In this document: positions 10,134 to 46,053 of the stretch, one piece after another
How positions within the stretch are numbered: the first letter of the stretch is position 1
Layout: every line of letters starts with the position of its first letter
Source: an uncultured Pseudomonadota bacterium
GTDB taxonomy: Bacteria > Pseudomonadota > Gammaproteobacteria > Acidiferrobacterales > UBA6901
Assembly: GCA_963698375.1 (NCBI GenBank)
Contig: CAVOQN010000006.1
Coordinates: 165,488 to 229,487 of the forward strand
Direction: 5' to 3'
DNA: 64,000 nucleotides
Translations under genes and position numbers: made by a program
Notes under the pieces: generated by a model
What the model was told of the DNA's origin: nothing
The model's database searches: none
The model's input: only the letters and a program-made list of their open reading frames with translations

Positions 10134-11453
10134 ATGAAAAACGGCCCTGACCTTATATATCTGCTGCTTGCTGCCATGGTCGGTAGCAACACGCATTCCA
10201 TGTCTGTCGCCGATTCGACCGTCGTCAATGGTTCAATGGCGTTTAACCCGATCGCCGGTTCTGCGTACACCGCGCTTACCTCGGATCCCGTCATTCTCTC
10301 CAGCCAGCCGTGGGTCATCCCCGAGGGCTATACGCAGCGCATCATCGCAGACGAAACCAACCTGAATATTTATGCCGGCCCCGACTGGAGCGACATGAAT
10401 GTGGCCAACGAAACCGGCAAACACGCCGGCCGATATTTGTATCGCACCCACGAAGTGCGTCCGAGTTCGAGCAACCCCGGCGCCTACACCGGTGGCGCCG
10501 TGTCGGTGGTGGATCTTAAAACCGGCAAGGCCAGGGTTATGGCGCAGCGTCACGATTGGGAAGCAGTGGATGGACTCGTGTGGTCGCCGTGGGGCACGCT
10601 GCTGTTTGGCGAGGAGACCGGCAACGCCCGGTTGCGCGATCCGGATCATCCGGCGGCGATCCGCGGCCTGATTTACGAAATGAAGCCCGACACGCACGAT
10701 CCGACCCGTGCCGAATGGATAAAGGCGCGACCGATGCTCGGTTCGGTGTCGCATGAAGGCATTGAGCTCGACAGCGAGGGCAATGTGTATGTGATCGACG
10801 AATTCGCCTCGGGCGCGATCTACAAGTTCGTGCCGAAAAAGCACGGTGACCTGAGAGACGGCCAGTTGTACGCCCTAAAGCTTGATGGCAACAGCAACGC
10901 GGATCGCACCGGTCCGGCTACCTGGGTGGCGCTCGACATGGACCGCGTGCAAGTCGATGCGCGCACCGCCGCCGCAAACGCCGGTGCCACCGGCTACGGC
11001 CGCCCCGAGGATCTGGAACGCATCGGCGACAAGCTGTACGTCGCAATCACCAGCGAAGCGCGTGTGCTGTCCATCAGCCTGGGCGGCAAGCCAGTGGTGC
11101 AGAATTTTGTCCGTGCCGGGCTGAATGTCCCGGTCGAGAACCGCTCCGCCGGCATCACCGGTTTCCGCAAACCGGACAACCTGGCCAACGGACCGGACGG
11201 CAACCTCTGGATCGTGGAAGACAACGTCCCAAGTGATCTCTGGGTGGCACTGCCGGACAGCGATGGTGACGGCGCCAGCGATGGCGTGTCTCTGTTCGGT
11301 TCGCTCAAGGACAACGGTGCCGAGGGAACCGGCATCTACTTTGGCAAGGACCCCGACACGTTGTTCGTGAACGTGCAGCACTCGGTCACCGGCAATGACA
11401 AGACCATGGCGATCACGAGTCGCAAGCACCAGATTCCCAGCCGTCCCCGTTAA
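10134..11453 (+). CDS. PhoX/DUF839-like secreted beta-propeller protein, paralog 1
   Basis: ORF. Motifs GRPEDLERIGDKLYVAITSE, NLANGPDGNLWIVEDN and EGTGIYFGKDPDTLFVNVQHS resemble the PhoX C-terminal region. About 80% aa identity by eye to 23415..24737. Confidence 0.75.
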   Translation: MKNGPDLIYLLLAAMVGSNTHSMSVADSTVVNGSMAFNPIAGSAYTALTSDPVILSSQPWVIPEGYTQRIIADETNLNIYAGPDWSDMNVANETGKHAGRYLYRTHEVRPSSSNPGAYTGGAVSVVDLKTGKARVMAQRHDWEAVDGLVWSPWGTLLFGEETGNARLRDPDHPAAIRGLIYEMKPDTHDPTRAEWIKARPMLGSVSHEGIELDSEGNVYVIDEFASGAIYKFVPKKHGDLRDGQLYALKLDGNSNADRTGPATWVALDMDRVQVDARTAAANAGATGYGRPEDLERIGDKLYVAITSEARVLSISLGGKPVVQNFVRAGLNVPVENRSAGITGFRKPDNLANGPDGNLWIVEDNVPSDLWVALPDSDGDGASDGVSLFGSLKDNGAEGTGIYFGKDPDTLFVNVQHSVTGNDKTMAITSRKHQIPSRPR

Positions 11454-19145: not shown

Positions 19146-19553
19146 GGTGATGTCTCCCGCAGCGGTTGATTGCGGGACATACCCTAGCGCCCGAACCTTA
19201 TGGGAAACTTAACAGTGGCAATGAATCCGCGAGTATCCGGGCAGGAGAGGAGTTGTCGCGTATATTAGGAAGAATTCCCCTCTGGCGCGGGTTTTCGATG
19301 AGCAACTTCCGCACCTGATGAGCAAGATCGGTGTCTACACCTTATATAACCCGGAAGACTCGGTGACCAGAAAGAATTCAGCCGTCCCATCCAGGCCGAC
19401 GCTCGCGCCTGGAACGTTTCCTCATCCGGCACCAGGCCGGCATGCCGCGCACCATGTTGCGCTACGCCATTGGGCATCTGCCAGTGCCACAGCGCGGCGT
19501 TATCTTCAGGACAAGTCAGCACGAAGAGCGCAGCCGTTCGGAGCTTTACCGGA

Positions 19554-20528
19554 CTATGTACAGCACATGTATCGCCACACCGGTGCATACAAGGGCGTCC
19601 CGTCCGGCAGCAGCGGCGTCTTCTCGTCGGTGACAACCGCGCCGTGGGCGTCGTTGTAACTGCCGGTGGACGGCAACGCATCGCTGTGCAGCATGTGCGT
19701 GTTGTTGTAGGGCGCGGCGACGCTGTCGACATCGATCGGCGCGCCATAGTCGGCCAAACCCATCAGCGTCCACGCCGCCAGCTTCGCCGGCAGGTTGTCA
19801 CGGTCGTGGTTGAAGCCAAAGTAGCCAGCGGTCGGGGTCACGTGGTTGCGGTCCTGCCACGGTGCCACGCCATAGCTGTTGCCGTCGCCGGGGGCTGCAA
19901 ACATCAGCACCCGGTCGAGAACATAATACTTCCCGATCACGGCGGCGTGCCCGGCGCCTTGCGAGTGGCCGGAAAACTGCAGGCGTGACCAGAACGGCTG
20001 CCCGTTGTCCAGGTATTGGTCCCAGCCTTCACCCGGCCAGGTCGCGTGCAGGTATTGCAGCAGTTTGATCAGCCGGTTGATGATGGAATTGTTGGCGTTG
20101 ACCGCCACCAGCGTGCTGCGATCGGTACCGTCAATGATCTCGAGGCGAACCCGTTCGTAGCAGGTCAGGTCCGGATCGGTGGCGCACAGATCGATGACCT
20201 CCCAGGAGTTCGGGTAGCGCAAGCCGATGACATGGTTGCCGGCTGCCGCCATCTCCTGCATGTAGCGCTGACTGTTTTCGGGTTTGCCGTAGGAACCCGG
20301 CAAGTGCACCAGCAACCGGCCGCGTGCCACGACGCGCGTGTCGCGGTAGGCGTAGTGGTCGTCGAGCCAGTTGTTGATATTGGTGTCGGTGGCAGCTGGC
20401 GCCACGATGTGTTCGGACAGCGCACCGGCGGGTGGCGCGATGGGGGTGTCGCCACCGCCACCGCTCCCGCCACACCCGGCAATGTTCAACATCACTACCA
20501 AACCGGCAAATCCCGCCTGCCATGACAT
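19554..20528 (-). CDS. lipoprotein, alpha/beta-hydrolase-like (GHSQG)
   Basis: ORF 19554..20846 trimmed to the ATG after GGGAGG. Lipobox LNIAGC. GHSQG nucleophile elbow. Confidence 0.75.
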   Translation of the reverse strand: MSWQAGFAGLVVMLNIAGCGGSGGGGDTPIAPPAGALSEHIVAPAATDTNINNWLDDHYAYRDTRVVARGRLLVHLPGSYGKPENSQRYMQEMAAAGNHVIGLRYPNSWEVIDLCATDPDLTCYERVRLEIIDGTDRSTLVAVNANNSIINRLIKLLQYLHATWPGEGWDQYLDNGQPFWSRLQFSGHSQGAGHAAVIGKYYVLDRVLMFAAPGDGNSYGVAPWQDRNHVTPTAGYFGFNHDRDNLPAKLAAWTLMGLADYGAPIDVDSVAAPYNNTHMLHSDALPSTGSYNDAHGAVVTDEKTPLLPDGTPLYAPVWRYMCCT

Positions 20529-20582
20529 CGTATCCTCCCGTGGGCGCGCTTCGCCCCAACCCGAATGGCGGAGCATGCAATC

Positions 20583-20610
20583 ATAACGCACCGATTGGCC
20601 AGCGGTTGAC
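20583..20610 (-). promoter_or_regulatory. candidate ECF-type promoter GTCAACC-N15-CGTTAT (copy A)
   Basis: The same -35/-10 blocks at identical spacing, with a divergent spacer, occur at 22318..22345 and 25597..25624. Confidence 0.5.
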
Positions 20611-20668
20611 GCCGGCTGAATCTCCCCCACCAGAAATAGTCGTCTCCGATTGGAAGCGACTCGGATTG

Positions 20669-22261
20669 TTAACGTTTTCCAATCGGAGTGTCGGCACGGC
20701 GCAGGGCCCAGACACTGGTGGTGAAGTTCGAGCCGTTGGGCACCGCCGAGTAGAACACCCACGTCTTGGAGGTTCCGATGTAGGGCTCGGGTTCGGATTT
20801 CGCCAGGCTGGCGACGGTCAAGTCGCTCGTATTGGACAGTCGCCATTGCGATTCCGTAGGCGGCGATTGCAGCACCGTCGAGAGCCAGATCTCGCCAGTG
20901 TTGGTGATGGTGTCGTAGAAACCGAGGCCTCTTTCGTTCACCTGGTAAGTGGTGTAGAGCAAGTCATCGAAGACAATGCTCTGGTTGGATTGTGCGAGTG
21001 CCGGATTGACGAGCAGCGAGTCGGGCGGCGTAATCTGCTCGACACTGGTGAACAGCGTCTCCCCCGAACTGCGCTGGTAAACCGTGGTGGTGGCGGTAGC
21101 ATTGATGCCCGGAAGGATCAGCTCACTGTCGCCGAACACCATGGACCACGGGTCGATCTTGTTGCTCGGATCGCCGGTCACGAAATAGGGCGGCGTGCCC
21201 GGGCTGTCCACATCGAACTCCTTCACCTGCACGTAACCCCGCGCGTCGAAGCTGCCAAAACTGAGCGCGGCCTTGCCGCGGAACCAGCGCGCGAAGCCTG
21301 CATCCATCGGGGCGAAGCCGTTCGCGGGCAGCGGCTGGGTTTCCACATCGTGCACGCTGGCGGGATCGGCCAGGCTGATGTACTGCAACGTGAACGAGGT
21401 GTTGCCCGGGGGGCTGTAGCCGGCGCCGGCGACCGTCGAGTTGCGGATCCAGAAGACGTAGTTAGTCGCGTTCGGAAGGTTGGTGGGATAAATAGCGCGG
21501 CGCAGCGTGTCCACCGCGGTCGCGAGTGTGGTAACGGTTCCGGTGGTGGCACTGGTCGGGCGCACGAGAATCAGTTGCCCGGTACGATTCATGCCCACGT
21601 AGAACGCACCCTGCGCATCAATGCCGGCATTGGCCCGGCCCCAGGCGCTGCTGTCGAAAGCGCGAAAGCCTTTGCCGTCCGGCGGGTCGAGTGTTCCGGT
21701 GGCGGGGTCCACGGCACAGTGCCACATGGTGCCCAATCCGGAACCATCGGTGGACTGCTCAAACCAGACCATGTAGCGGCTATCGTCCGTGAACTCCACG
21801 TTGGCATAGCTTACGAGCGGGTCGCCCACCTGCACGTCGTTTACCGCAAAGGTGTGCGTCTGCGCGACCACCGCAGAGGACGGCGCCGACATGGCGCCCG
21901 CGCTGTCCTGGGAAGCCACTTGGTAACTGAAGCTGGTACCTGCAAACAGCCCGCTGTCGTTGAAATGGTTGCTGGTTGAGGTAGTGACTGGCTGGCCGTT
22001 GCGGTAGATCACGTACGAAGCCGCCGCGGTGACCACATCCCAGGCGAGGCTGATCTCCGACGACGACACTGCATTCGCCGTCAGGCCTGTGGGCGCCGTC
22101 AGCGAACCGGGTGGCGGGGGCGTCGAGCCAGAACCACCTCCGCCTCCGCACGCTGACAGGAATACGCATGACAAGAGGAGTATCGTCAGTCCAGTTGAAC
22201 GCATCATCACTGTTAACCCCGGTTTCAATTTATGTGTGAACACAGCTCGTCTGCATGACAT
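20669..22261 (-). CDS. lipoprotein with N-terminal fibronectin type III domain and unknown C-terminal domain
   Basis: ORF. Lipobox FLSAC followed by a G-rich linker. FN3-like LTANAVSSSEISLAWD...YVIYRNG. The start context GGAGGACACGATGTCATG is conserved with 20528. Confidence 0.75.
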   Translation of the reverse strand: MSCRRAVFTHKLKPGLTVMMRSTGLTILLLSCVFLSACGGGGGSGSTPPPPGSLTAPTGLTANAVSSSEISLAWDVVTAAASYVIYRNGQPVTTSTSNHFNDSGLFAGTSFSYQVASQDSAGAMSAPSSAVVAQTHTFAVNDVQVGDPLVSYANVEFTDDSRYMVWFEQSTDGSGLGTMWHCAVDPATGTLDPPDGKGFRAFDSSAWGRANAGIDAQGAFYVGMNRTGQLILVRPTSATTGTVTTLATAVDTLRRAIYPTNLPNATNYVFWIRNSTVAGAGYSPPGNTSFTLQYISLADPASVHDVETQPLPANGFAPMDAGFARWFRGKAALSFGSFDARGYVQVKEFDVDSPGTPPYFVTGDPSNKIDPWSMVFGDSELILPGINATATTTVYQRSSGETLFTSVEQITPPDSLLVNPALAQSNQSIVFDDLLYTTYQVNERGLGFYDTITNTGEIWLSTVLQSPPTESQWRLSNTSDLTVASLAKSEPEPYIGTSKTWVFYSAVPNGSNFTTSVWALRRADTPIGKR

Positions 22262-22317
22262 CGTGTCCTCCCCGTGGGCGCGTTTCGCCCGGGCCCGGAA
22301 ACCGGGGGCATGCAGTC

Positions 22318-22345
22318 ATAACGCACCGACAGGCTAGCGGTTGAC
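22318..22345 (-). promoter_or_regulatory. candidate ECF-type promoter GTCAACC-N15-CGTTAT (copy B)
   Basis: See 20583..20610. Confidence 0.5.
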
Positions 22346-22561
22346 ACGGCTGAACCTCCCACACCAGAAATAGCCGTCTCCAATCAGAAGCGGCCAAGGC
22401 ATCAGATGTTTGCGTTGACACACTCGACCCGCGCCGTGATGATTCAACAAGCCGGCAAGGAGAATATTAAGAAGAAACTGTTACGAGCCGGCCTCCGTCC
22501 GAAGGGAGAGTTCCGCATGCGCACGAGCACTCATGTTCTGCTGGCAGCGGCAAAAAAACCC

Positions 22562-22611
22562 GGGTCAGAGAGGAATTGTTGCTAATATTAGAAAATATTC
22601 CTCTCTGACCC
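22562..22611. repeat. 50-nt palindromic repeat, GGGTCAGAGAGG family
   Basis: GGGTCAGAGAGGAAT-N20-ATTCCTCTCTGACCC. Related copies at 44950, 45825 and 52796. Confidence 0.8.
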
Positions 22612-22657
22612 TGATTACCCAGTCCCCTCACGACGTAGTCAACGAAACAACACAGCA

Positions 22658-22999
22658 ATGAGCAGCCAACCCAAGTGCCCGAAGTGCGCTTCCGTCTACA
22701 CCTACGAAGACGGAAACATGTTTGTCTGCCCGGAATGCGCGCATGAATGGTCGAAGGAGGCGGCAGCCGAAATTATTGATGAGGGCCTGATAGTCAAAGA
22801 TGCGCACGGCAACCTGCTGCACGACGGTGACAGTGTGTCCGTCATCAAGGATCTCAAGGTCAAGGGTTCCTCGTCGGTGGTGAAGGTTGGCACCAAAGTG
22901 AAAAACATCCGGCTGGTCGAGGGCGACCACAATATCGACTGCAAAATCGACGGCATTGGGCCGATGAAACTGAAGTCAGAGTTTTTAAAGAAGGCGTAG
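22658..22999 (+). CDS. phnA: PhnA/YjdM zinc-ribbon protein
   Basis: CPKC...CPEC zinc ribbon and a C-terminal domain with [16 protein letters not shown]. Confidence 0.9.
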
Positions 23000-23089
23000 T
23001 TTATGAAAAGATGATGTAGTGATTAAACTTTTGTCACTGCGTACCCTAAAATGTCTTTAACAATTTCATCTTTCATCACCGTGGAATCC

Positions 23090-23239
23090 ATGAAAGCAGT
23101 TGTCCACGACCACTACGGCCCACCGGATGTGCTTCGGGTCTCGGAAATCGACAGGCCCATCCCCCGTAACCTGTGTTGGGCGAATGTCGCGAATACTGCA
23201 CTGAATTCCTTTCCGGCGCGGATCAGCTGGCGTATTTAA
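23090..23239 (+). pseudogene. N-terminal fragment of an MDR-family quinone oxidoreductase
   Basis: MKAVVHDHYGPPDVLRVSEIDRPIP matches the N-terminus of 43817..44797 ([25 protein letters not shown]) and then diverges into nonsense. Confidence 0.5.
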
Positions 23240-23414
23240 AAAAATTTCACTTGTTCGTCATATGCCTGCCATGCAGGCAGGCATGTCCCCGGCTCGCTCC
23301 GGCGCGCGCCGCGGCGGCGCCTGAGCCGATTTAATGAACAGGTAACAAACGGCCACTAGAGTTCCTGTCGCAGTGCGCACCCGCACCCCAAACCTTTGCT
23401 TACCGGGAGACAAA

Positions 23415-24737
23415 ATGAACAGGAAATCCTTGCTTGCCGCCGCGATCAGTGCCGTCGTGGTTTCCGCCGCCGTTGCCGATTCGACCGTCGTCAAGGGCCC
23501 GATCGCATTCAACCCGATCGCCGCCTCCGCGTACGCGGAGCTGACCACCGATCCGGTCATCCTCAACAGCCAGCCGTGGGTTATTCCCCAGGGCTTTTCG
23601 CAGCGCATCGTGTCCGACGAAAACAACCTGAATATTTATGCCGGCTCCGACTGGAACGACATGAACACGGTCAATGAGACCGGGAAACATGCCGGCCGAT
23701 ACATGTACCGCACTCATGAAGTGCGTCCGGACACCAGCAACCTCGGCGCGTACACCGGCGGTGCGGTGTCGGTGGTGGACCTGAAGACCGGCGAGGCCAG
23801 GCTTGTGGTGCAGCGCCTCGATTGGGAAGCCCTCGATGGCATCGTCTGGACGCCGTGGGGCACGGTGCTGTTTGCCGAGGAAACCGGCAGCGCCGTGTTT
23901 GCCGACCCGGATTATCCGGCCGCGATCCGCGGCCTGGTCTACGAGATGAAGCTCGACCGGAGGGACCCGACCCGCGCCGAATGGGTCAAGGTGCGTCCGA
24001 TGCTCGGTTCGGTGTCGCACGAAGGCATTGAATTCGACAGCGAAGGCAACGTGTACGTAATTGATGAAACCAGCCCAGGCGCAATCTTCAAGTTTGTGCC
24101 GAAGCACTATGGCGACCTGAGCGATGGACAGCTGTACGCGCTGAAGGTGGACGACAGCGCCAACGGTGATCGCGTCGGCCCGGCCGAATGGGTGGCGCTC
24201 GACATGAACCTGGCGCCGATGGATGCACGCACTGCCGCCGCCAATGTCGGCGCTACCGGCTACGGCCGCCCCGAGGACCTGGAGCGCATCGGCAACACGC
24301 TGTACGTCGCGATTACCAGCGAGGCGCGCGTGCTGTCAATCAGCCTCGGCAACACGCCGGTGGTGAAGAACTTCGTCAAGGCCGGCCTGAATGTCCCGGT
24401 GGAGAATCGCACGGCCGGCATCACCGGCTTCCGCAACCCTGACAACCTCGCGAACGGACCGGACGGCAAGCTCTGGATTGTAGAAGACAATGTGCCGAGT
24501 GATATCTGGGTGGCACTGCCGGACAAGGACGGCGACGGCGTCAGCGACGGCGTTTACCTGTTCGCCACGCTCAAGGATAACGGCGCCGAAGGCACCGGCA
24601 TCTACTTCGGCAAGGACCCGCACACCCTGTTCGTGAACGTGCAGCACTCGGCCACCGGCAATGACAAGACCATGGCGATTACCAATCGTCAACGCGGTCA
24701 TGGTGGCGATGACGACGATTATCACGTCGGCCGTTAA
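23415..24737 (+). CDS. PhoX/DUF839-like secreted beta-propeller protein, paralog 2
   Basis: ORF 23373..24737. Signal peptide MNRKSLLAAAISAVVVSAAVA. Colinear with 10134..11453. Confidence 0.75.
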   Translation: MNRKSLLAAAISAVVVSAAVADSTVVKGPIAFNPIAASAYAELTTDPVILNSQPWVIPQGFSQRIVSDENNLNIYAGSDWNDMNTVNETGKHAGRYMYRTHEVRPDTSNLGAYTGGAVSVVDLKTGEARLVVQRLDWEALDGIVWTPWGTVLFAEETGSAVFADPDYPAAIRGLVYEMKLDRRDPTRAEWVKVRPMLGSVSHEGIEFDSEGNVYVIDETSPGAIFKFVPKHYGDLSDGQLYALKVDDSANGDRVGPAEWVALDMNLAPMDARTAAANVGATGYGRPEDLERIGNTLYVAITSEARVLSISLGNTPVVKNFVKAGLNVPVENRTAGITGFRNPDNLANGPDGKLWIVEDNVPSDIWVALPDKDGDGVSDGVYLFATLKDNGAEGTGIYFGKDPHTLFVNVQHSATGNDKTMAITNRQRGHGGDDDDYHVGR

Positions 24738-24782
24738 CGCTGATTCGTATCAGGTTACCAGTTAGGGAATAGTCTTCATGAT

Positions 24783-24818
24783 TGCCGCGGCGCTGCAATG
24801 CGCCGCGGCATTTTTTTT
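24783..24818 (+). terminator. rho-independent terminator
   Basis: TGCCGCGGCG-loop-CGCCGCGGCA followed by T8. Confidence 0.8.
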
Positions 24819-24915
24819 GCCCAGCGAGCCTGCGGCCGTTTCATCTGAAAAATATCATCGCGCCAAAATCACACTGATCAACGCAATCGCTACCTCTGCA
24901 AATTCCGGATTGGAC

Positions 24916-25533
24916 TTATAAATAATTGCTGGAGTCCACCGGCCGGAAGTAGTTGCCAATCGCCGCCACATGGCGGTGATCGGTGCCGCAGCAGCCGCCG
25001 ACCACGCGCAGTTTCGGCAGCAGTGTGCCGAGCGCGCGGTATTCGTGTCCCAGTTCCACCGGGTTGCCGGCATCGAGGTCGGTGCTTTCGTCGAGTTCGG
25101 CATGGCTGCGTTTCGAGGCATTGGCGCGCAGCCCGCGAATGCGCTGCGTCCACGCGCCGCCATTTTTCAGCTCGCGCTCGAAGTGCGTGGGGTGTGCGCA
25201 GTTGATCATGAAGTAAGCCGCGTAGCCGCCGGTCTCGGCGTCGGTGCGCTCGATCGCGCGTTGCAGCGTGTCACCGCTCGGCAACTTGCCGTCGGTTTCG
25301 AGCGTGAACGAAATCACCACTGGCATCTGCGCGTCGCGCGCCGCCACGCGCGTGTCGCGGTAGGCGTAGTGGTCGTCGAGCCAGTTGTTGATATTGGTGT
25401 CGGTGGCAGCTGGCGCCACGATGTGTTCCGCCAGTGAACCGCCGATTGGGCTGCCCGGATTGTTGCTTCCGCCGCCACAGCCGGACAGGGCCAGCATCAT
25501 CACCAGACCAATAATCAGCAATTGTAAAGACAT
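24916..25533 (-). CDS. chimeric ORF: lipoprotein signal/N-terminus fused in frame to the C-terminal half of a homocysteine S-methyltransferase paralog
   Basis: The N-terminus MSLQLLIIGLVMMLALSGC...AEHIVAPAATDTNINNWLDDHYAYRDTRV matches 19554..20528. The C-terminus DAQMPVVISFTLETDG...GGCCGTDHRHV matches 32196..32626. Confidence 0.6.
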   Translation of the reverse strand: MSLQLLIIGLVMMLALSGCGGGSNNPGSPIGGSLAEHIVAPAATDTNINNWLDDHYAYRDTRVAARDAQMPVVISFTLETDGKLPSGDTLQRAIERTDAETGGYAAYFMINCAHPTHFERELKNGGAWTQRIRGLRANASKRSHAELDESTDLDAGNPVELGHEYRALGTLLPKLRVVGGCCGTDHRHVAAIGNYFRPVDSSNYL

Positions 25534-25596
25534 CAGAAATGAACCCTTCTGGTTGCACAGCATTCTGTTCCAGCCCGGTGTCCGGCGTATACAGCC

Positions 25597-25624
25597 ATAA
25601 CGCACCGGTCGACAAATGGTTGAC
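25597..25624 (-). promoter_or_regulatory. candidate ECF-type promoter GTCAACC-N15-CGTTAT (copy C)
   Basis: See 20583..20610. Confidence 0.45.
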
Positions 25625-25675
25625 GTCGTTTCGATATTCAATGCGTAGGCAGCCGGGTTTTGATCGAGGCACAAG

Positions 25676-26458
25676 TTACTGCGCCAGAATCTCGCGAATT
25701 GCCTCGATCACGAACTCCGGTTTGTCTGACTGGATGAAGTGCCCGCTCTCCACCCACTGCTGACGGCCCTCCGGGTACAGGCGCGCGAAATCCGCACGCG
25801 TATTGTTGGAGTGCTTCACGACGTCGCTGTCCCGCTTGTCCACCGCGCTCAGGATACTTACCGGTTTGTTGGTAACCGTGGGCAGGGCCAGCACTGCCTG
25901 ACCGGTGGCGGGTGCGGCATCGAACTCTCTTTTCTTTTCGCCGGTTAAATAAACGTGCAGGAGCGCGCGCACCCACCACGATTGCTTGTCGAGCGCGCCG
26001 GCGCCCTCCATCTGGGTGGGGTGTGTGGCGTCCACCAGCACCAGGCCACGGACTTCATCCGGATACTGGCGCGCGAACAGTTGCATGTACAAACCGCCGA
26101 GCGAATGGCCCACCAGCACATACGGCGGCATCAGCCCCTGGCGGCGCAGCAGCGTGCGCAGCTCGTCCACGATATGCGCGCCGTCGCGCGGCGTTACGGC
26201 CGGGTCGCTGCCGCCATAACCCGGCCGGTTGTAGGCGAACACCGTGGCGTCCTGACCGATGTCGCGAAATACCTTGTCCCAGCTGTGCAGGGACGCACCG
26301 AGACCATTCTCAAACACCACCACCGGCGCACCGCCCTTGATCAGCGCGAATTCGATATGTCGTTGATCAATCGTTGCCACGTCGACAGCGGGCAGGCTGG
26401 CGCAACCCGACAGGAGAGCGAGAAGCAAGAATGGAATTCCCAAAAAGCAATTTTTCAC
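25676..26458 (-). CDS. alpha/beta hydrolase lipoprotein
   Basis: Lipobox LLSGC and GHSLGG nucleophile elbow. Confidence 0.85.
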   Translation of the reverse strand: MKNCFLGIPFLLLALLSGCASLPAVDVATIDQRHIEFALIKGGAPVVVFENGLGASLHSWDKVFRDIGQDATVFAYNRPGYGGSDPAVTPRDGAHIVDELRTLLRRQGLMPPYVLVGHSLGGLYMQLFARQYPDEVRGLVLVDATHPTQMEGAGALDKQSWWVRALLHVYLTGEKKREFDAAPATGQAVLALPTVTNKPVSILSAVDKRDSDVVKHSNNTRADFARLYPEGRQQWVESGHFIQSDKPEFVIEAIREILAQ

Positions 26459-26602: not shown

Positions 26603-29264
26603 TTATTTCAGCGGTGTGGCCGGGTTCGCTCGATTACCGTCGCGGGCGGCGCGTGCGCGATCCTGTAGATAGGCCTTGATCCCGGGGTTTTCCTGCGAGG
26701 TCGCAATGTCGGAATAATGCAGAGCGATGCGGGAACGAAGGCTCTCGTTCCAGGGCGCGAGCGCCAGCGCGTCGTCGTATTGACGAAAGATCTCCATCGC
26801 GGATCCCGGCCCCAGGCTGATGCGGTAGCCGTTCAGGTAAGCCTGTTCGGCGGCCAGCGCGCGTTCGAGTTTCTCTGCCTCGCCCTTGCTGCGCAGCTTG
26901 ATCGCCGCCAGGAAGTCGTGTGCGGCGGCACGTTTCAGGTCCGCAATAAACTCGATGTTTGCAGCGATCCGCAGTTTGTGCGGGACCGCATAATCCCACG
27001 GTGAGAAGAATTCGTAACGTGGATGGACCAGCGTATTCTCCGGCACGTCCCGCAGCACGCGCCGGATATGCTCGCCGTCTGTTACGAACTGCGCCAACAC
27101 CGCCTCCGGCGTCGTCAGGCCGTAACGCGCGAGCCCGGCGAGGGCTTCGTGCCCGGAGCGCATGACCCGTTCAATGCGGGTGCTGTCGAGTACAATCTTC
27201 TCGTTCGAGCCGATCAGGATTGTGTTGTAGCCGCTCGCCTTGAGTGCGGGCATGAAGAAGCCCATCAGCATATGCGGGAAGCTGTCGGCGAAGGTCTTCA
27301 ACACCATGGTGTACTGGCTCGGCGGCAGGTTCGCCGGCATCCACTGAATCAGCATGCCACCGGGTGCCAGGCGTTGCCGCAGCAGGTTGTAGTATTCACG
27401 AGAGTAGGAGAACCCGTTAGACGCAAAGTCGAGCGATGTCTTCTCATCGGCGGAGATCACGCGGTAGCGATCGTTCGTGGTCCGCAAGTAGTTCGCGATG
27501 TCGTCGATCACCACGCGTGCTCGCGGGTCAGACAGGACGCGGTGGTTTTCGTTGGTGAAGAACACCGCACCCGTGACGACGCTTGGCTCGATTTCCACGC
27601 AGGTAATCGTTTGCACCCGCGCATGGCGGATGCTTTCGCCCGCGAGAATGCCGGAACCAAGCCCGATCGACAGTTCGGTCGAGACATCGTCCAGCAGCAA
27701 CTTTGGCAAATGGGCCAACAACAGTTGCTTGTACTCGGTGAACGTATTGCCGCCGATGACGATGCCGTCGATGGCCATTACCTTCTCGCCCGTGACCGGG
27801 TCGAGTGTCACCTTGGTTGTGGCCGACGGTCCGTCCTGGTAGAACATGGTCAGATGCGTCGGGCTCTCATTTTCGGAGGGAAAATGAAAGTCGAGCGGCA
27901 CGTGCGCAAGAACCAGCAGCGCGCCCACGGCCGCCGCGGGCACGGCCCAGCGCAAACGTCGTGCGCCGGCCAGACGCAGCGCCAGGAAGGTAAATCCGAT
28001 ACAGGCGTTCAGTGCCGCCATCAGCAGGATGCCGCGCTGGATACCGAGCCAGTTCAGCAGCACGAAACCGGGCAGCAAGGCACCGGCCACATTGCCGAGG
28101 GTATTGCTCGCGTAAATCAGCCCGACGCGCCTGCCCGTGTGCTGAAGGTCGACAATGCCGACGCGCCCCACCAGCGGGAAGGTCGCGCCAATCAAGGTCG
28201 CCGGCACCAGCATCACGAGTAAACGCGATGCCGAAGCGCGCGACAGTGAGCAACCCGATATTGCCCGTCGCTTCACTCAGGAATTCGCGGATTGCCTGCG
28301 GCCCGAGGAATGCAAACAGCACCGGTAGCGCCACAGCCGAAGACACGGCAATGAGCACCTGAATCCAGCCAAACAGTGCCACCCGGTCAACGACCCGATC
28401 AACGAACAGGCGGGCCAGGTAACCACCAAGCGCGATGCCGGTAATAAATGCCGTGAGCATCGTCGTGAGCGCGTAGGTCGAATTGCCCAGGAGAAAAACG
28501 AGCGATCGCGTCCAGTAGATCTCGTAGGCAAAGGATGTCAGGCCGGACACACCGAGAGCGAAGAGCAGCAATGCATAGGTTCTGGGCGAGAGCGCCTCGC
28601 CGTTCGGTGCCGGCCTTGCGTCGGGTAGCGGCACCGCCGTCGCTGGCACCGGGTTCACGCGGCGGGACGCGGCCCACGCGATCAAGCCCAGACCCAGGTT
28701 GCCCACGACCGCGACGTAGACAGTCACGTGGATACCAAAGGTTCCGATCAGGTAAAAGCCGCTTGCCATGGCGCCTGCAACTGCGCCAATGGTGTTGATG
28801 GCATAGAGAGTGCTCAGATCGGCACCCGCCGCGGAGAGCCGCCGGACCACGAACCGCGCGAGCACCGGCAGCGTCGCGCCCATGAGAAAGGTCGGTATCA
28901 TGACCAGACCAAAGGCGAGCACGAAACGCGAAGCCGCGAGCATCGCTTCGGAATGACCCGAGATCTCGTAGAGTGCGAGATAGGCGGGCGTAATTCGCAA
29001 CAGCAGAAAATGTACGGCGAGCGCCGCGAGACCAATCCCGATTTCCAGGAGGGCATAGAAGCGCAGCGAATTGGTGTTCCGGTCCGCGACTTTTCCGAGC
29101 AGCCAACTCCCCAGCGCGAGTCCCGACATGAACGCTGCCAGCACGACACCCACGGCAACGGCCGTTGTTCCGAACACATGCGTGAGCATTCGTACCCAGA
29201 CGATCTGGTAGACGAGGCCGCAGGCGCCGGAGAAGAAAAACAGGGTTAGGATGAGTAGCCGCAT
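26603..29264 (-). pseudogene. spermidine synthase-like protein with N-terminal polytopic membrane region and C-terminal TPR-like tail, one frameshift
   Basis: ORFs 27867..29264 and 26603..28276 join at ..LLTVARFGIA / LLVMLVPATLIG (homopolymer at 28221-28223). The aminopropyltransferase-like core has IGLGSG and DAYKQ-type segments. Confidence 0.7.
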
Positions 29265-29401: not shown

Positions 29402-29917
29402 TTACGCATGGCCGAGATAGGCGAGCGCCTGATCCATGCAGCAGTTCGAGTGCGACAGGTTCAGGCCTAGCTGATACGACAGCTCGGCGATCATGGCTTC
29501 ATCGTTGGTTCCCAGCTCTCGCGTGTCCATGGACATTGGCCCGTAGCACTGTGAATCGTAGAGCACGGTGTAGTGGACAATCGCCGGATAGCGTGCCACC
29601 TCGAGCCGGAACACGCTGCAGGGCACCTCCTTGTCACAGTCATTCCTGCACACGCCCGTGCCGAGGTGCAGGGCTTCCTCGGGAACACCCGCCGGCGTCG
29701 CGATCTTGCAGGTTTGGCGCGGAGCAGCTGTGTCGTGTTCTGTCAGTTGAAACACACGCGGCCCGTCGTGCCGGAAGCTGGCCACCGCCTTCGGCACCAC
29801 GCCGCCCTGGAAGAACAGCCGATAGCGGCCGCGTGTGTATTCGCCGCAAAGCCAAGCGCAGCGGCGAACAGCAAGCCGCAGCAGGTGGTTCGTGCCGGCC
29901 CTGGGCGGTTTTTTCAA
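29402..29917 (-). CDS. hypothetical protein
   Basis: 171-aa ORF with a TTG start, divergent from 30018. I recognise no family and the start is uncertain. Confidence 0.4.
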   Translation of the reverse strand: MKKPPRAGTNHLLRLAVRRCAWLCGEYTRGRYRLFFQGGVVPKAVASFRHDGPRVFQLTEHDTAAPRQTCKIATPAGVPEEALHLGTGVCRNDCDKEVPCSVFRLEVARYPAIVHYTVLYDSQCYGPMSMDTRELGTNDEAMIAELSYQLGLNLSHSNCCMDQALAYLGHA

Positions 29918-32093: not shown

Positions 32094-32195
32094 CTATTGT
32101 CTTGTGTCTTGCAGGCGTATATCGGCATGCACGCTGCCCTGAAAATCGCCAAACCGTTGCATGTATTCAATGATCAGCGACGACCGGATCGGGCT

Positions 32196-33158
32196 TCATA
32201 AAAAACTGCTGGAGTGCACCGGCCGGAAGTAGTTGCCAATCGCCGCCACATGGCGGTGATCGGTGCCGCAGCAGCCGCCGATCACGCGCAGTTTCGGCAG
32301 CAACTTGCCAAGCGCGCGGTACGCGTGTCCCAGCTCCACCGGGTTGCCGGCATCGAGGTCGGTGCTTTCGTCGAGTTCGGCATGGCTGCGTTTCGAGGCA
32401 TTGGCGCGCAGCCCGCGAATGCGCTGCGTCCACGCGCCGCCATGTTTCAGCTCGCGCTCGAAGTGCGTGGGGTGCGCGCAGTTGATCATGAAGTAGGCCG
32501 GGTAGCCGCCGGTGTCGGCGTCGGTGCGCTCGATCGCGCGTTGCAGCGTGTCGCCGCTCGGCAGCTTGCCGTCGGTTTCGAGCGTGAACGAAATCACTAC
32601 CGGCATCTGCGCATCGCGCGCCGCCAGCACAATGCCGATCGCCTCCTCGACATAGGTCATGGTGAACGCCGCCACCAGATCGGCGTCGGTCTGCGCGAAG
32701 GTTTCAATCTGCGGCGCGTGGTAGGCGCGCGCCTCTTCCACCGACATGCGCGCATCGACGCGGTAGCCGTCGCCGCGCGGGCCGAGGTTGCCGCTGATCG
32801 GCATCGGTGATTGCGCGGTTTCGAACGCATCGCGGATTTCCAGCATCAGGCCAATCGCCTTGCGGTTGGCGTCGGCCAGCGCGACCGCGTCGTAGCCGAG
32901 TTTGGCCGCCCAGTCCGGGTTGGCGCGCCAGGTGGGAGCTTCCAGTACCAGCCCCATGCCCTGGTCGCGGGCAATGCCGGCATAGCAGCGATAATAATCG
33001 CGCAGCCGTTCGAAACCGGCATCGTCCTTGAGCAGGTCGAAGGACGCGAAATACGGCAGGTCGAGCCCGTCGTGGAAAATCAGTGTGGTTTCGAGGCCGC
33101 CGTCGGTGAGGAACAGCTGGTCGCGAAGTTGTGGGAGATGCTCGCGGTATTTGCTCAT
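32196..33158 (-). CDS. homocysteine S-methyltransferase family protein
   Basis: ORF 32196..33278 trimmed to MSKYREHL. Motifs LFLTDGGLETTLIF and C-terminal GGCCGT. Confidence 0.85.
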   Translation of the reverse strand: MSKYREHLPQLRDQLFLTDGGLETTLIFHDGLDLPYFASFDLLKDDAGFERLRDYYRCYAGIARDQGMGLVLEAPTWRANPDWAAKLGYDAVALADANRKAIGLMLEIRDAFETAQSPMPISGNLGPRGDGYRVDARMSVEEARAYHAPQIETFAQTDADLVAAFTMTYVEEAIGIVLAARDAQMPVVISFTLETDGKLPSGDTLQRAIERTDADTGGYPAYFMINCAHPTHFERELKHGGAWTQRIRGLRANASKRSHAELDESTDLDAGNPVELGHAYRALGKLLPKLRVIGGCCGTDHRHVAAIGNYFRPVHSSSFL

Positions 33159-40071: not shown

Positions 40072-41030
40072 ATGCGCAAGGAAACCCGGGCTTTACTGGC
40101 CGTCCTGCTGCTCGTTACCAGCACGCTGTGCGCCGCGTTCGAAATCAAGGAATACCCGGTTCCGAAAGGCGCGCACCCGCACGATGTCGCGCCGGCCGCC
40201 GATGGCGGCGTGTGGTACACCGCCCAGCATCAGGGCGCGCTCGGGTATCTCGACCCGAAAACCGGCAAGACCCGCCACATCCCGCTCGGCAATGGTTCCC
40301 GTCCACATGGGGTTATCGTGGGGCCGGATGGCGCCGCGTGGATCACCGATTCCGGTCTCAACGCCAATCGTGCGCGTCGACCCGAAAACCGACAAGGTCG
40401 AAGTCTTCCCGCTGCCCAAGGGCACGCCGAACGTCAACCTCAACACCGCCACGTTCGATAACGCCGGCATCCTGTGGTTCACCGGCCAGAACGGTTACTA
40501 CGGCAGCTTCGATCCCAAAACCAAAAATAACCAAGGTGTTCGAGGCCCCGCAAGGCCGCGGGCCGTATGGCATCTGCACCGCGCCGGATGGCAGCGTGTA
40601 TTACGCCTCGCTCGCCGGCAGCCACATCGCGCGCATCGATACCAAAACCGGCAAGGCCACGGTCATCGAGCCGCCCACGCCGTACCAGGGCGCGCGCCGC
40701 GTGTGGGCGGATTCACAAAACCGAATCTGGGTCAGCGAATGGATCTCCGGCCAGGTGTCGCTGTACGACCCGAAAACAAAAAAATGGAAAGAATGGAAAG
40801 CCCCGGGCGACAACCCGCAGGTGTATGCGGTGTACGTGGACAACAAGGACATTGTCTGGCTGTCGGATTTCGGCGCCAACGCCATGCTGCGCTTCGACCC
40901 GAAGACCGAAAAGTTCACCGTGATCCCGAGCAAGAGCGGCAACGCGCGCGTGCGCCAGATTCTCGGCCGGCCCGGCGAGGTGTGGTTGCCGGAGTCGGGG
41001 GCGGATAAGTTGGTGGTGATACGGGAGTGA
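40072..41030 (+). pseudogene. Vgb (streptogramin lyase)-like beta-propeller protein with two homopolymer frameshifts
   Basis: Three ORF segments (40072.., 40184.., 40128..41030) read through as FEIKEYPVPKGAHPHDVAPAADGGVWYT...IVRVDPKT...KITKVFEAPQGRGPYGI... Breaks at AA 40366-67 and A5 40523-27. Confidence 0.75.
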
Positions 41031-45036: not shown

Positions 45037-45816
45037 ATGCTGTTAGGAAGTAATCGACTTCTCTTCACCGCCGTGTTTGTTTCCGTGGCCTTGCATGCCA
45101 TGGCGTTTGTGCTGTCTGGCCATCTGTTCAAACTCACCGGCAAGCCAGAAGTCCTCGAACTGAAGAACGAGATTATCCTTACGGAGGTGTTGCCGCCTGC
45201 GGACAATCCGGTCACGACACCCGTCACGAAGAACCAACCGGCCTCGCAGGCAGCCCCGCCTGCCCCGACGGCGGAAGCATGGGCCTTTGCGGGCCGGTAC
45301 ACGCTCAAAAACAGCAAGGGCTACCGGTATAACTGGGGACAACAGGTTCGCAGCATGATGGGCACCGCCGTCGATGGGCCCGATCAGGGCCTCGTCCGGT
45401 TTCGTCTGGAAATTGCACCCGACGGGACGTTGGCAAAACTGGAAACGCTGTGGACCACCTCTGCCGCCGCCGAGCGGCTGGCTCGCCAGGCCATCCGCAA
45501 CCTGCCGCCGTTGCCGCCCACCCCGACTGGCAAGCCGTTGATCTTTGATCGAACGATTTCGTTCCTGTCCGATACCACGGAAAGCCCGCCGACCTACAAG
45601 GACGACTGTGATCCGGTGCCACCCGCGTTCGAGAGCCCGTACACCTGGGACGGCAAAGAACCGTGGGTGCCGCCCAAACCGAAACCTGTTGTAAAGCCCG
45701 ACCCGCAGGCCATGGAAGAGTGCCTCAAGCAACTGCCGCAGGATTCGATCGAGGCAGAACTCGGGCGCAACGAGGACCTGTACGGACGATGGGGGACCCG
45801 CGAGTCGGAGCGGTAG
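45037..45816 (+). CDS. TonB C-terminal domain family protein
   Basis: N-terminal TM segment, Pro-rich linker, and a C-terminal segment GLVRFRLEIAPDGTLAKLE...AERLARQAIRNLPPLPP. Confidence 0.7.
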   Translation: MLLGSNRLLFTAVFVSVALHAMAFVLSGHLFKLTGKPEVLELKNEIILTEVLPPADNPVTTPVTKNQPASQAAPPAPTAEAWAFAGRYTLKNSKGYRYNWGQQVRSMMGTAVDGPDQGLVRFRLEIAPDGTLAKLETLWTTSAAAERLARQAIRNLPPLPPTPTGKPLIFDRTISFLSDTTESPPTYKDDCDPVPPAFESPYTWDGKEPWVPPKPKPVVKPDPQAMEECLKQLPQDSIEAELGRNEDLYGRWGTRESER

Positions 45817-45824
45817 AAAAAACC

Positions 45825-45874
45825 GGGTCAGAGAGCAATTCTTTCCAATATAAGCAACAATTCCTCTCTGACCC
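45825..45874. repeat. 50-nt palindromic repeat, GGGTCAGAGAG family
   Basis: GGGTCAGAGAGCAATT...AATTCCTCTCTGACCC. Confidence 0.8.
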
Positions 45875-45987
45875 AGATTTTCCTAAATGCTACGAGCAGG
45901 CATGGACCAAACTAAAGTTGGCCCGTGGCCAAGCCGTGAGGCTTTGCAGCGCAGGTATAGGGCAAATGAAACTATGACCAAACTAAA

Positions 45988-46023
45988 GGGGTCGGAGTGA
46001 TTTAACTTTAATCACTCCGACCC
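45988..46023. repeat. hairpin repeat, GGGGnCGGAG family (possible bidirectional terminator)
   Basis: GGGGTCGGAGTGATT-TAACTTT-AATCACTCCGACCC flanked by A-rich and T-rich runs. Lies between convergent genes. Confidence 0.75.
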
Positions 46024-46053
46024 TTATTAACTTTTTAAACTTGCGTTCGATCC

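Follow-up and report, generated by a model that had tools for sequence, protein, structure and literature searches.

The window analysed here, a 64,000-nt stretch of contig CAVOQN010000006.1 from an uncultured gammaproteobacterium of the lineage Acidiferrobacterales UBA6901, harbours an in-frame fusion between the start of a lipoprotein gene and the 3′ half of a homocysteine S-methyltransferase (MT) gene. The best account of this chimera, to which a probability of roughly 0.7 is given, is that it arose by accidental recombination and represents a very young, strain-specific and non-functional scar consisting of an orphaned 5′ module. This module most likely comes from a BPSS1187-family alpha/beta-hydrolase lipoprotein gene, of which it keeps promoter X, the ribosome-binding site, the signal peptide with its lipobox, and the first ~45 mature residues. 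The fusion lies at the left edge of a unit of 5,014 bp that has an 82-bp direct repeat (referred to as R) at both ends, the two copies of which lie 5,014 nt apart. The features of the fusion and of the gene from which its MT portion can be judged are as follows.

25596..25625, minus strand: promoter motif X (GTCAAC-N16-CGTTATG), of the extracytoplasmic function (ECF) sigma-like type, upstream of the chimera; conserved in the X-type orthologues L083, L084, L087 and L088.
24916..25536, minus strand: chimeric open reading frame (ORF), 205 aa including the stop, with a signal peptide and lipobox LALSGC; ~45 aa come from the lipoprotein N-terminus and 143 aa from the MT C-terminal half.
25347..25428, minus strand: repeat R copy 1, 82 nt, encoding ..EHIVAPAATDTNINNWLDDHYAYRDTRV; Y-type sequence behind an X-type signal peptide.
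25346..25347, minus strand: junction J1 between lipoprotein R and mid-MT, an illegitimate join in frame.
24905..25346, minus strand: 3′ half of an MT gene, covering residues 178-320 and ~11 nt beyond the stop codon; 94.6% identity with the resident gene.
32196..33158, minus strand: resident homocysteine S-methyltransferase gene, full-length, 320 aa (P0003), syntenic with the related contigs L001 and L002.

The N-terminus of the chimera reads MSLQLLIIGLVMMLALSGC, a hydrophobic core followed by the lipobox L-S-G-C; in the source gene calls the protein is P0001 (215 aa), with the start placed 10 codons further upstream. At the junction, the ..EHIVAPAATDTNINNWLDDHYAYRDTRV of repeat R continues in frame into AARDAQMPVVISF.., giving the read-through YAYRDTRV|AARDAQMPVV, and the ORF closes at the MT's own stop codon. 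The peptides spanning the junction are ..YAYRDTRVAARDAQMPVV.. and ..YAYRDTRVAARDAQMPVVISF.., and the 40-mer of DNA across it is TACCGCGACACGCGCGTGGCGGCGCGCGACGCGCAGATGC. Over its C-terminal 143 aa the chimera shares 93% identity with resident MT residues 178-320; at the DNA level, blastn pairs 24905-25346 with 32184-32626 (443 nt, 23 mismatches, 1 gap, 94.6% identity). An earlier note on this DNA had described just such a lipoprotein/MT chimera behind an ECF-like promoter, and both the single lipobox-bearing ORF and the conserved motif are present. Its description of the MT portion as the 3′ half plus ~20 nt beyond the stop holds for the half, but homology ends ~11-23 nt after the stop and nothing significant follows; the microhomology it placed at the junction likewise amounts to patchy GC-rich similarity of both parents, within which the strict overlap is 1 nt (T).

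The identity of positions 25347-25428 with 20333-20414, which the same note had given as 82/82, is exact, and blastn extends it to 107 nt at 93%. Similarity between the two lipoprotein loci is not confined to these 82 nt and continues upstream into the signal peptide and promoter at ~65-70% identity. Because homologous sequence around the repeat is only ~65-83% identical, 82 straight matches (chance ~0.7^82) point to a common recent origin rather than to slow divergence.

As a protein, the chimera covers only positions 159-280 of the 283 in the Pfam profile PF02574 (S-methyl_trans), whereas the resident MT covers 2-280, and it therefore lacks the complete (beta-alpha)8 domain of this family. 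In an AlphaFold2 (AF2) model, residues ~66-200 form four beta-alpha units (four strands) at a predicted local distance difference test score (pLDDT) of ~80-90, and the N-terminal 60 residues fall below 50; this confidence comes from the family alignment and is uninformative on half-barrel stability. All three zinc-ligand cysteines (INC, GGCC) are kept, in MINCAHP and VGGCCGT, as aligned to the motifs of 5DML via the resident MT. The predicted export signal sets the chimera apart from the family, whose members are cytoplasmic. With the intact BPSS1187 paralogue the chimera has residues 1-69 in common; the domain itself (residues 72-322, GHSQG) is absent, and the chimera is not a member of NF047580. 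Among 5.8 billion database proteins, P0001 makes up a one-member cluster from a single contig. Since the substrate-binding half is absent, the product would be exported unfolded to another compartment, and only one sequence exists, the fusion protein is most likely non-functional, and unstable if made at all.

Evidence for the orphaned nature of the module comes from an uninterrupted allele. L083, a 1,902-nt Logan contig from run ERR14949366 found by a hydrolase search, follows the window from 25846 down to 25347 and is joined, via a single R, to 20414 down to 18931. Once alignment overhang is removed, only 2 true single-nucleotide differences remain in ~1.9 kb (at 25726 and 25506), a divergence of ~0.1%. 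L083 encodes P0121, in which the N-terminus of the chimera leads into the complete hydrolase body of the gene near 20 kb. On these matches, the window corresponds to L083 with one additional R-bounded unit of 5,014 bp: the duplication of R flanks the insert, and the L083 allele is shorter by exactly one unit. The other end of the arrangement is made up of the following features.

20415..20625, minus strand: promoter Y and Y-type signal peptide (MSWQAGFAGLVVMLNIAGC..), with the promoter motif at 20570-20610; now drives the hydrolase body.
20333..20414, minus strand: repeat R copy 2, identical to copy 1.
19554..20528, minus strand: hybrid BPSS1187-family lipoprotein gene, intact, 324 aa with a GHSQG motif; Y-type N-terminus plus R, X-type body.

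The product of this 20-kb gene has no Pfam match and scores 254 bits (cut-off 125) against NCBIfam NF047580, the 244-position BPSS1187 family domain, which covers its residues 72-322. More distant relatives are uninterrupted as well: L084, L085, L086, L087 and L088 each carry one uninterrupted gene with an X-type promoter and signal peptide. L084 continues contig L001 (labelled Acidiferrobacterales UBA6901 by its depositors), and its flanks are 96-98% identical to the window. An intact full-length gene at this place in related genomes, which the earlier note had named as evidence against its proposal, is thus found in part, in that L083 and the more distant relatives have a full-length lipoprotein gene.

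Other changes surround this locus. Despite the similarity of the flanks, the lipoprotein gene is only 82-88% identical to that of L084. At window 25626-25671, ~3.4 kb of L084 between an abhydrolase gene and promoter X is missing from both the window and L083; in L084 this stretch encodes four proteins: a cytochrome c-like one (166 aa), a membrane protein (140 aa), a GAF protein (447 aa) and one of 167 aa. On the other side, a DNA_alkylation (PF08713) gene has lost ~570 bp internally at window ~19397-19403, with a junction overlap of 3-7 nt; this deletion is shared by L083, and the gene is intact in L084, L087 and L088. The lineage has further illegitimate deletions nearby, of 3.4 kb beside the abhydrolase gene and of 570 bp in the DNA_alkylation gene.

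Comparison of the two sequence types of this lipoprotein gene, X and Y, showed that R itself is Y-type. R is identical in copy 1, copy 2 and L083, differs from X-type orthologues at ~17 of 82 positions, and in protein sequence comes nearest to genes of the Y type (P0130 and P0122, for example). Ahead of R copy 1, promoter and signal peptide align as X-type, like those of L084, L087 and L088; the body after R copy 2 is X-type too, matching an X-type orthologue (the best of P0241, P0243 and P0127) at 30/30 residues over aa 76-105, with aa 91-105 again identical to an X-type orthologue. Since an X-type signal peptide precedes a Y-type R and an X-type body follows one, both edges of R are recombinant joints. 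By these assignments, the 20-kb gene is composed of the Y promoter, signal peptide and R with an X body, and the chimera of the X promoter and signal peptide, a Y-type R, and the MT remnant.

The motif GTCAAC-N16-CGTTATG, which we take to resemble the AAC-N16/17-CGT pattern of ECF sigma promoters, has three occurrences in all, each in minus orientation: one precedes the chimera (25584-25624), one the 20-kb gene (20570-20610) and one a gene for a lipoprotein with an fn3 domain (22305-22345). These three copies suggest a small co-regulated ECF-type regulon; no sigma factor for it was identified. As a separate observation, the loci upstream of the hybrid BPSS1187 gene and the fn3 gene are ~82% identical over ~150 nt.

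The MT portion of the chimera provides an independent view of age and origin. It had been regarded as a diverged copy of the resident gene, and this was rejected: the piece differs at 22-24 of 431 nt from each of the MT genes found in the window, in L001 and in L002, while these three orthologues are only 5-14 nt apart from one another; it lies outside their clade. Where its amino acids depart from those of the resident MT, several (E, E, V) agree with more distant orthologues, and the best MT match in GTDB representative genomes has 81% amino acid identity. The dN/dS of the piece against full-length genes is 0.19-0.23, compared with 0.21-0.27 among full-length functional orthologues. Used as a test for pseudogene decay, this ratio is uninformative on function, its value being that of functional orthologues, as a very recent truncation predicts. 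The orthologue-like ratio together with the outgroup position indicates that the piece diverged within a working MT gene, of a related lineage or as an old paralogue, and that truncation was too recent for decay, with no time spent under relaxed selection. A recent truncation agrees with the zero divergence of the R copies and the ~0.1% divergence from L083.

The fusion had also been seen as an isolated join of two parents. It is in fact one edge of a repeat-bounded mosaic with at least two further illegitimate joints, the interior of which reads as follows, in order from the MT remnant to promoter Y.

24831..24904, no strand: junction zone J2, ~74 nt between the MT remnant and the PhoX-like terminator, with no parent assigned.
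22553..24830, plus strand: yjdM/PhoX-like cassette, with a repetitive extragenic palindromic (REP)-like palindrome at 22557-22616, yjdM at 22658-22999, the PhoX-like gene at 23415-24737 and a terminator at 24783-24810.
22415..22552, plus strand: gene stump and J3; a leader follows a sigma-70-like promoter (TTGACA-17-GATGAT) and leads into 12 initial codons (MRTSTHVLLAAA), where the REP element cuts the gene at 22552.
20669..22261, minus strand: fn3-domain lipoprotein gene, with its own ECF-like motif copy at 22305-22345.

The 12-codon stump is the start of a secreted protein gene paralogous to that at window 40072.., and is the second gene stump within the unit. The cassette is 94% identical to the UBA6901 contig L089, where its neighbours differ, being the 3′ end of a gene (window copy 45037-45816) and an alcohol dehydrogenase (ADH) gene. 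No recombinase gene was found in the unit, the content of which comes down to the MT remnant, PhoX-like gene, yjdM, stump, fn3 gene and promoter Y; its ends carry no inverted repeats, and the whole window has no tRNA gene. Insertion of a transposon, insertion sequence, integron or prophage was accordingly rejected. An Rfam scan of the window gave no matches, and neither the reciprocal product (MT 5′ half plus hydrolase body) nor a second full Y-type locus was found in the window. The idea that homology to the MT 3′ flank reaches the PhoX terminator was likewise rejected, as local alignment does no better than with shuffled sequences.

Several observations on the components of the unit deserve mention in their own right. 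In a distant genome (L091 4609-7164, JGI contig Ga0187893), a BPSS1187-like hydrolase lipoprotein gene adjoins a homologue of the fn3 lipoprotein with 57% amino acid identity, and these two families may form a conserved functional pair. Comparison of window 45784-46030 with L089 1-112 and 2381-2430 indicates that the site of the cassette looks vacant in the window: at 45.8-46.0 kb, the end of the upstream gene is 100% identical over 34 nt and two hairpin or REP-like elements lie ~100 nt apart, with no cassette. This vacant site, together with the cassette at 22553-24830, hints at an intragenomic relocation. The REP-like palindrome of ~60 nt (AACCCGGGTCAGAGAGGAATT...AATTCCTCTCTGACCC) occurs at window 22557-22616 and 45817-45881, one copy being the exact boundary of a gene truncation. 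Two PhoX-family (PF05787) paralogues, at 23415-24737 and 10134-11453, share 82% nucleotide identity, and the copy at 10 kb adjoins a major facilitator superfamily (MFS) transporter and an NMT1/phosphonate-binding-like protein. Finally, 99 nt of the yjdM-PhoX intergenic region (23068-23166) match the start of L089's zinc-ADH gene, its 5′ end, at 93% identity, a copy that apparently predates the split from the UBA6901 contig.

From the repeat, the junction, the mosaic make-up, the uninterrupted allele and the Y-type R copies, all of which are seen directly, we infer the following mechanism. The 5,014-bp mosaic would have been placed within the hydrolase lipoprotein gene, module Y at its far end taking over the hydrolase body; its near end would be an MT 3′ half from a related lineage, and the in-frame join to R a 1-in-3 accident. 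Two routes could lead to this arrangement. In one, a mosaic fragment would have circularised, creating J1, and then integrated in the manner of Campbell through a single crossover in R, which would presuppose a recipient already carrying Y-type R, in the form of L083. X- and Y-type R are too different for a crossover, and one crossover would leave one copy of each, so the recipient's R must have been Y-type beforehand; a simple single crossover in diverged R was therefore rejected as sufficient, given the ~17/82 differences. In the other route, replicative template switching would have carried synthesis from the X template to the Y locus through R, back by a jump to mid-MT, and from there on into R a second time and to the X body. 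After either route, RecA recombination between the two R copies could delete the unit and reconnect module X to the body, giving the L083 allele.

Some points weigh against an accidental scar of this kind. The correctness of the assembly and the lack of expression are both judged here from the sequence. The chimera retains an intact promoter motif, ribosome-binding site and lipobox, and no premature stop interrupts it, which makes expression plausible; all three zinc-ligand cysteines of the MT fold are retained. For both R copies to be Y-type, R must have been converted beforehand in the recipient, or the arrangement must have originated by template switching, and 82 bp is short for a RecA-dependent crossover. 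Change may have run in either direction, L083 being compatible both with an ancestor and with a deletion derivative. The donor locus (full MT2 ... fn3 - Y-type gene) was not found in any collection searched; the close relatives of the fn3 gene sought in JGI metagenomes came down to two distant loci with 56-57% identity, and the contexts of the Y-type lipoproteins P0122 and P0130, seen as gene lists, offered no clear donor arrangement.

Three other explanations were weighed against this background. The contig could thread two co-occurring strains or loci, such that no single molecule carries the fusion. The source does look like a metagenome-derived contig, with closest relatives among metagenome-assembled genomes and metagenome contigs; the other arrangement exists in another run (L083); an exact repeat bounds the unit, and the assembly graph would also fit a chromosome plus a 5-kb circle. 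In addition, three +1 frame changes in two window genes hint at an imperfect consensus, or at real pseudogenisation. However, a chimera of assembly is expected where the parents share sequence long enough for a k-mer or an overlap, and at 25346/25347 R and MT share 1 nt, from which no such assembler would create a join. The MT piece, 94-95% identical to every available MT gene and an exact match to none, must reside somewhere, and its far end runs into unique sequence. Even the reading as chromosome plus circle leaves lipoprotein and MT fused in frame, behind signal peptide Y in place of X, and L083 independently confirms two of the four joints, those of X signal peptide to R and of R to body. 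An artefact is thus considered unlikely.

A newborn functional gene, the second of the options offered by the earlier note, would have been born no more than ~0.1% of sequence divergence ago. The ECF-like promoter would drive its expression, the product would be exported and lipidated, and its zinc-binding (beta-alpha)4 half barrel, perhaps paired as a homodimeric pseudo-barrel, might serve some purpose in the envelope. The promoter motif, conserved in orthologues, the intact lipobox, the open frame, the three retained cysteines and the confident AF2 model of four beta-alpha units can all be counted in its favour, and Hocker et al. are said to have found in 2001 that isolated HisF half barrels can dimerise. 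Nevertheless, the fusion protein is a database singleton, absent from a strain ~0.1% different; the dN/dS signal predates the fusion, leaving selection no time to act; the substrate-binding N-terminal half of the barrel is missing; the model is silent on whether a half barrel is stable; and the direct repeats make the locus prone to loss. There is no evidence for a new functional gene, and this explanation is regarded as highly improbable, while a young non-functional scar, the note's first option, fits. It is also very unlikely that the locus switches modules, with R as a recombination anchor at which X and Y promoter-signal modules, with or without the fn3/yjdM/PhoX cargo, swap before one hydrolase body and the chimera is a parked inactive module. 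Two states do occur in near-identical strains, a Y-driven body with an orphan X in the window and an X-driven body in L083; both edges of R are recombinant, the three ECF-like motifs suggest co-regulation, and orphan-module arrays built through a conserved anchor are known at type VI secretion system (T6SS) and Rhs loci (PMC5361080). Yet only two states are seen, in two sequences, deletion between R copies runs in one direction only, truncated genes make the cargo a patchwork and no tidy cassette, and neither a recombinase gene nor boundary inverted repeats were found in the unit.

Elsewhere in the window, some further irregularities were recorded. The gene for a secreted beta-propeller protein at 40072-41030 (plus strand), whose product we take, by eye, to be Vgb/SMP-30-like, needs two +1 frame changes, near 40365 and 40560 in short A runs, and is either a pseudogene or the victim of a consensus indel error. 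A spermidine-synthase-domain/MFS-like gene at 26603-29264 (minus strand), a single 886-aa ORF in L001, is split into ORFs of 557 aa and 465 aa at 28223 by a 1-nt insertion with adjacent substitutions. Between 41000 and 50000, the G+C content is 45-56% against ~60-65% elsewhere, and this low-G+C region may be an acquired island. The intergenic region between a GSDH-like gene and its neighbour, the next gene, is ~300 nt shorter in the window (29828-29897) than in L001 (4372-4729), with a 70-nt repeat at the boundary.

Taken together, the scar and its uninterrupted counterpart provide a natural snapshot of how illegitimate and short-homology recombination make bacterial fusion ORFs, with both alleles present in strains ~0.1% apart and the parents of individual pieces identifiable. 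The event is of an ordinary kind and unusually well documented; it is no new kind of system, and nothing indicates a working product. Work on gene birth, and on structural variation in uncultivated bacteria, can draw on this case, which is also a warning for annotation, because the chimeric ORF scores as a homocysteine S-methyltransferase in Pfam.

Among known systems, the MT portion compares with PF02574 enzymes such as E. coli MmuM (PDB 5DML), of which it holds a bona fide C-terminal half with the INC and GGCC zinc cysteines. In contrast to these, the chimera is without the N-terminal ~55% of the barrel and has a Sec/lipoprotein signal, and cannot be an active family member. For the arrangement as a whole, the closest parallel to the circle route is Campbell-type integration. 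In E. coli lacZ experiments, single-crossover integration of a circle with partial homology leaves flanking duplications of 109-950 bp (PMC3240628). Here too, a direct duplication (of 82 bp) flanks the insert, the gene is split into a truncated and a reconstituted copy, and recombination between the repeats can reverse the event. The present case departs from this in that the unit encodes no replicon, phage or plasmid functions, the circle is a hypothesis and the homologous stretch is short; both repeats, moreover, are donor-type, which demands an extra step.

In homology-facilitated illegitimate recombination (HFIR), recipient DNA is as a rule lost, with 3-10 bp of microhomology at the join (PMC3240628); PMC5361080 cites de Vries & Wackernagel 2002 and Prudhomme et al. 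2002 for this process. The locus resembles it in that one end was joined by homology (the lipoprotein gene, on the R side) and the other illegitimately (R/MT), which leaves foreign or paralogous DNA caught beside an anchor. Recipient sequence is, however, duplicated here and not deleted, and the microhomology is 1 nt, so classical HFIR fits less well. Microhomology-mediated template switching (MMBIR/FoSTeS), reportedly set out by Hastings et al. in 2009, likewise features several low-homology junctions in a few kb, a short segment copied twice and pieces from several loci; for this window it would be deduced from the end product, and serial deletions and insertions could give the same patchwork. 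Finally, at Rhs, contact-dependent inhibition (CDI) and T6SS effector-immunity loci, the displaced part of a gene is left as an orphan behind a conserved anchor (PMC5361080). Whereas there it is 3′ toxin/immunity ends that are orphaned, here it is a 5′ promoter/signal module, fused to an unrelated enzyme fragment and with no toxin system involved. What the two share is the conserved anchor, the orphan that remains, and the ability of repeat recombination to reconnect it.

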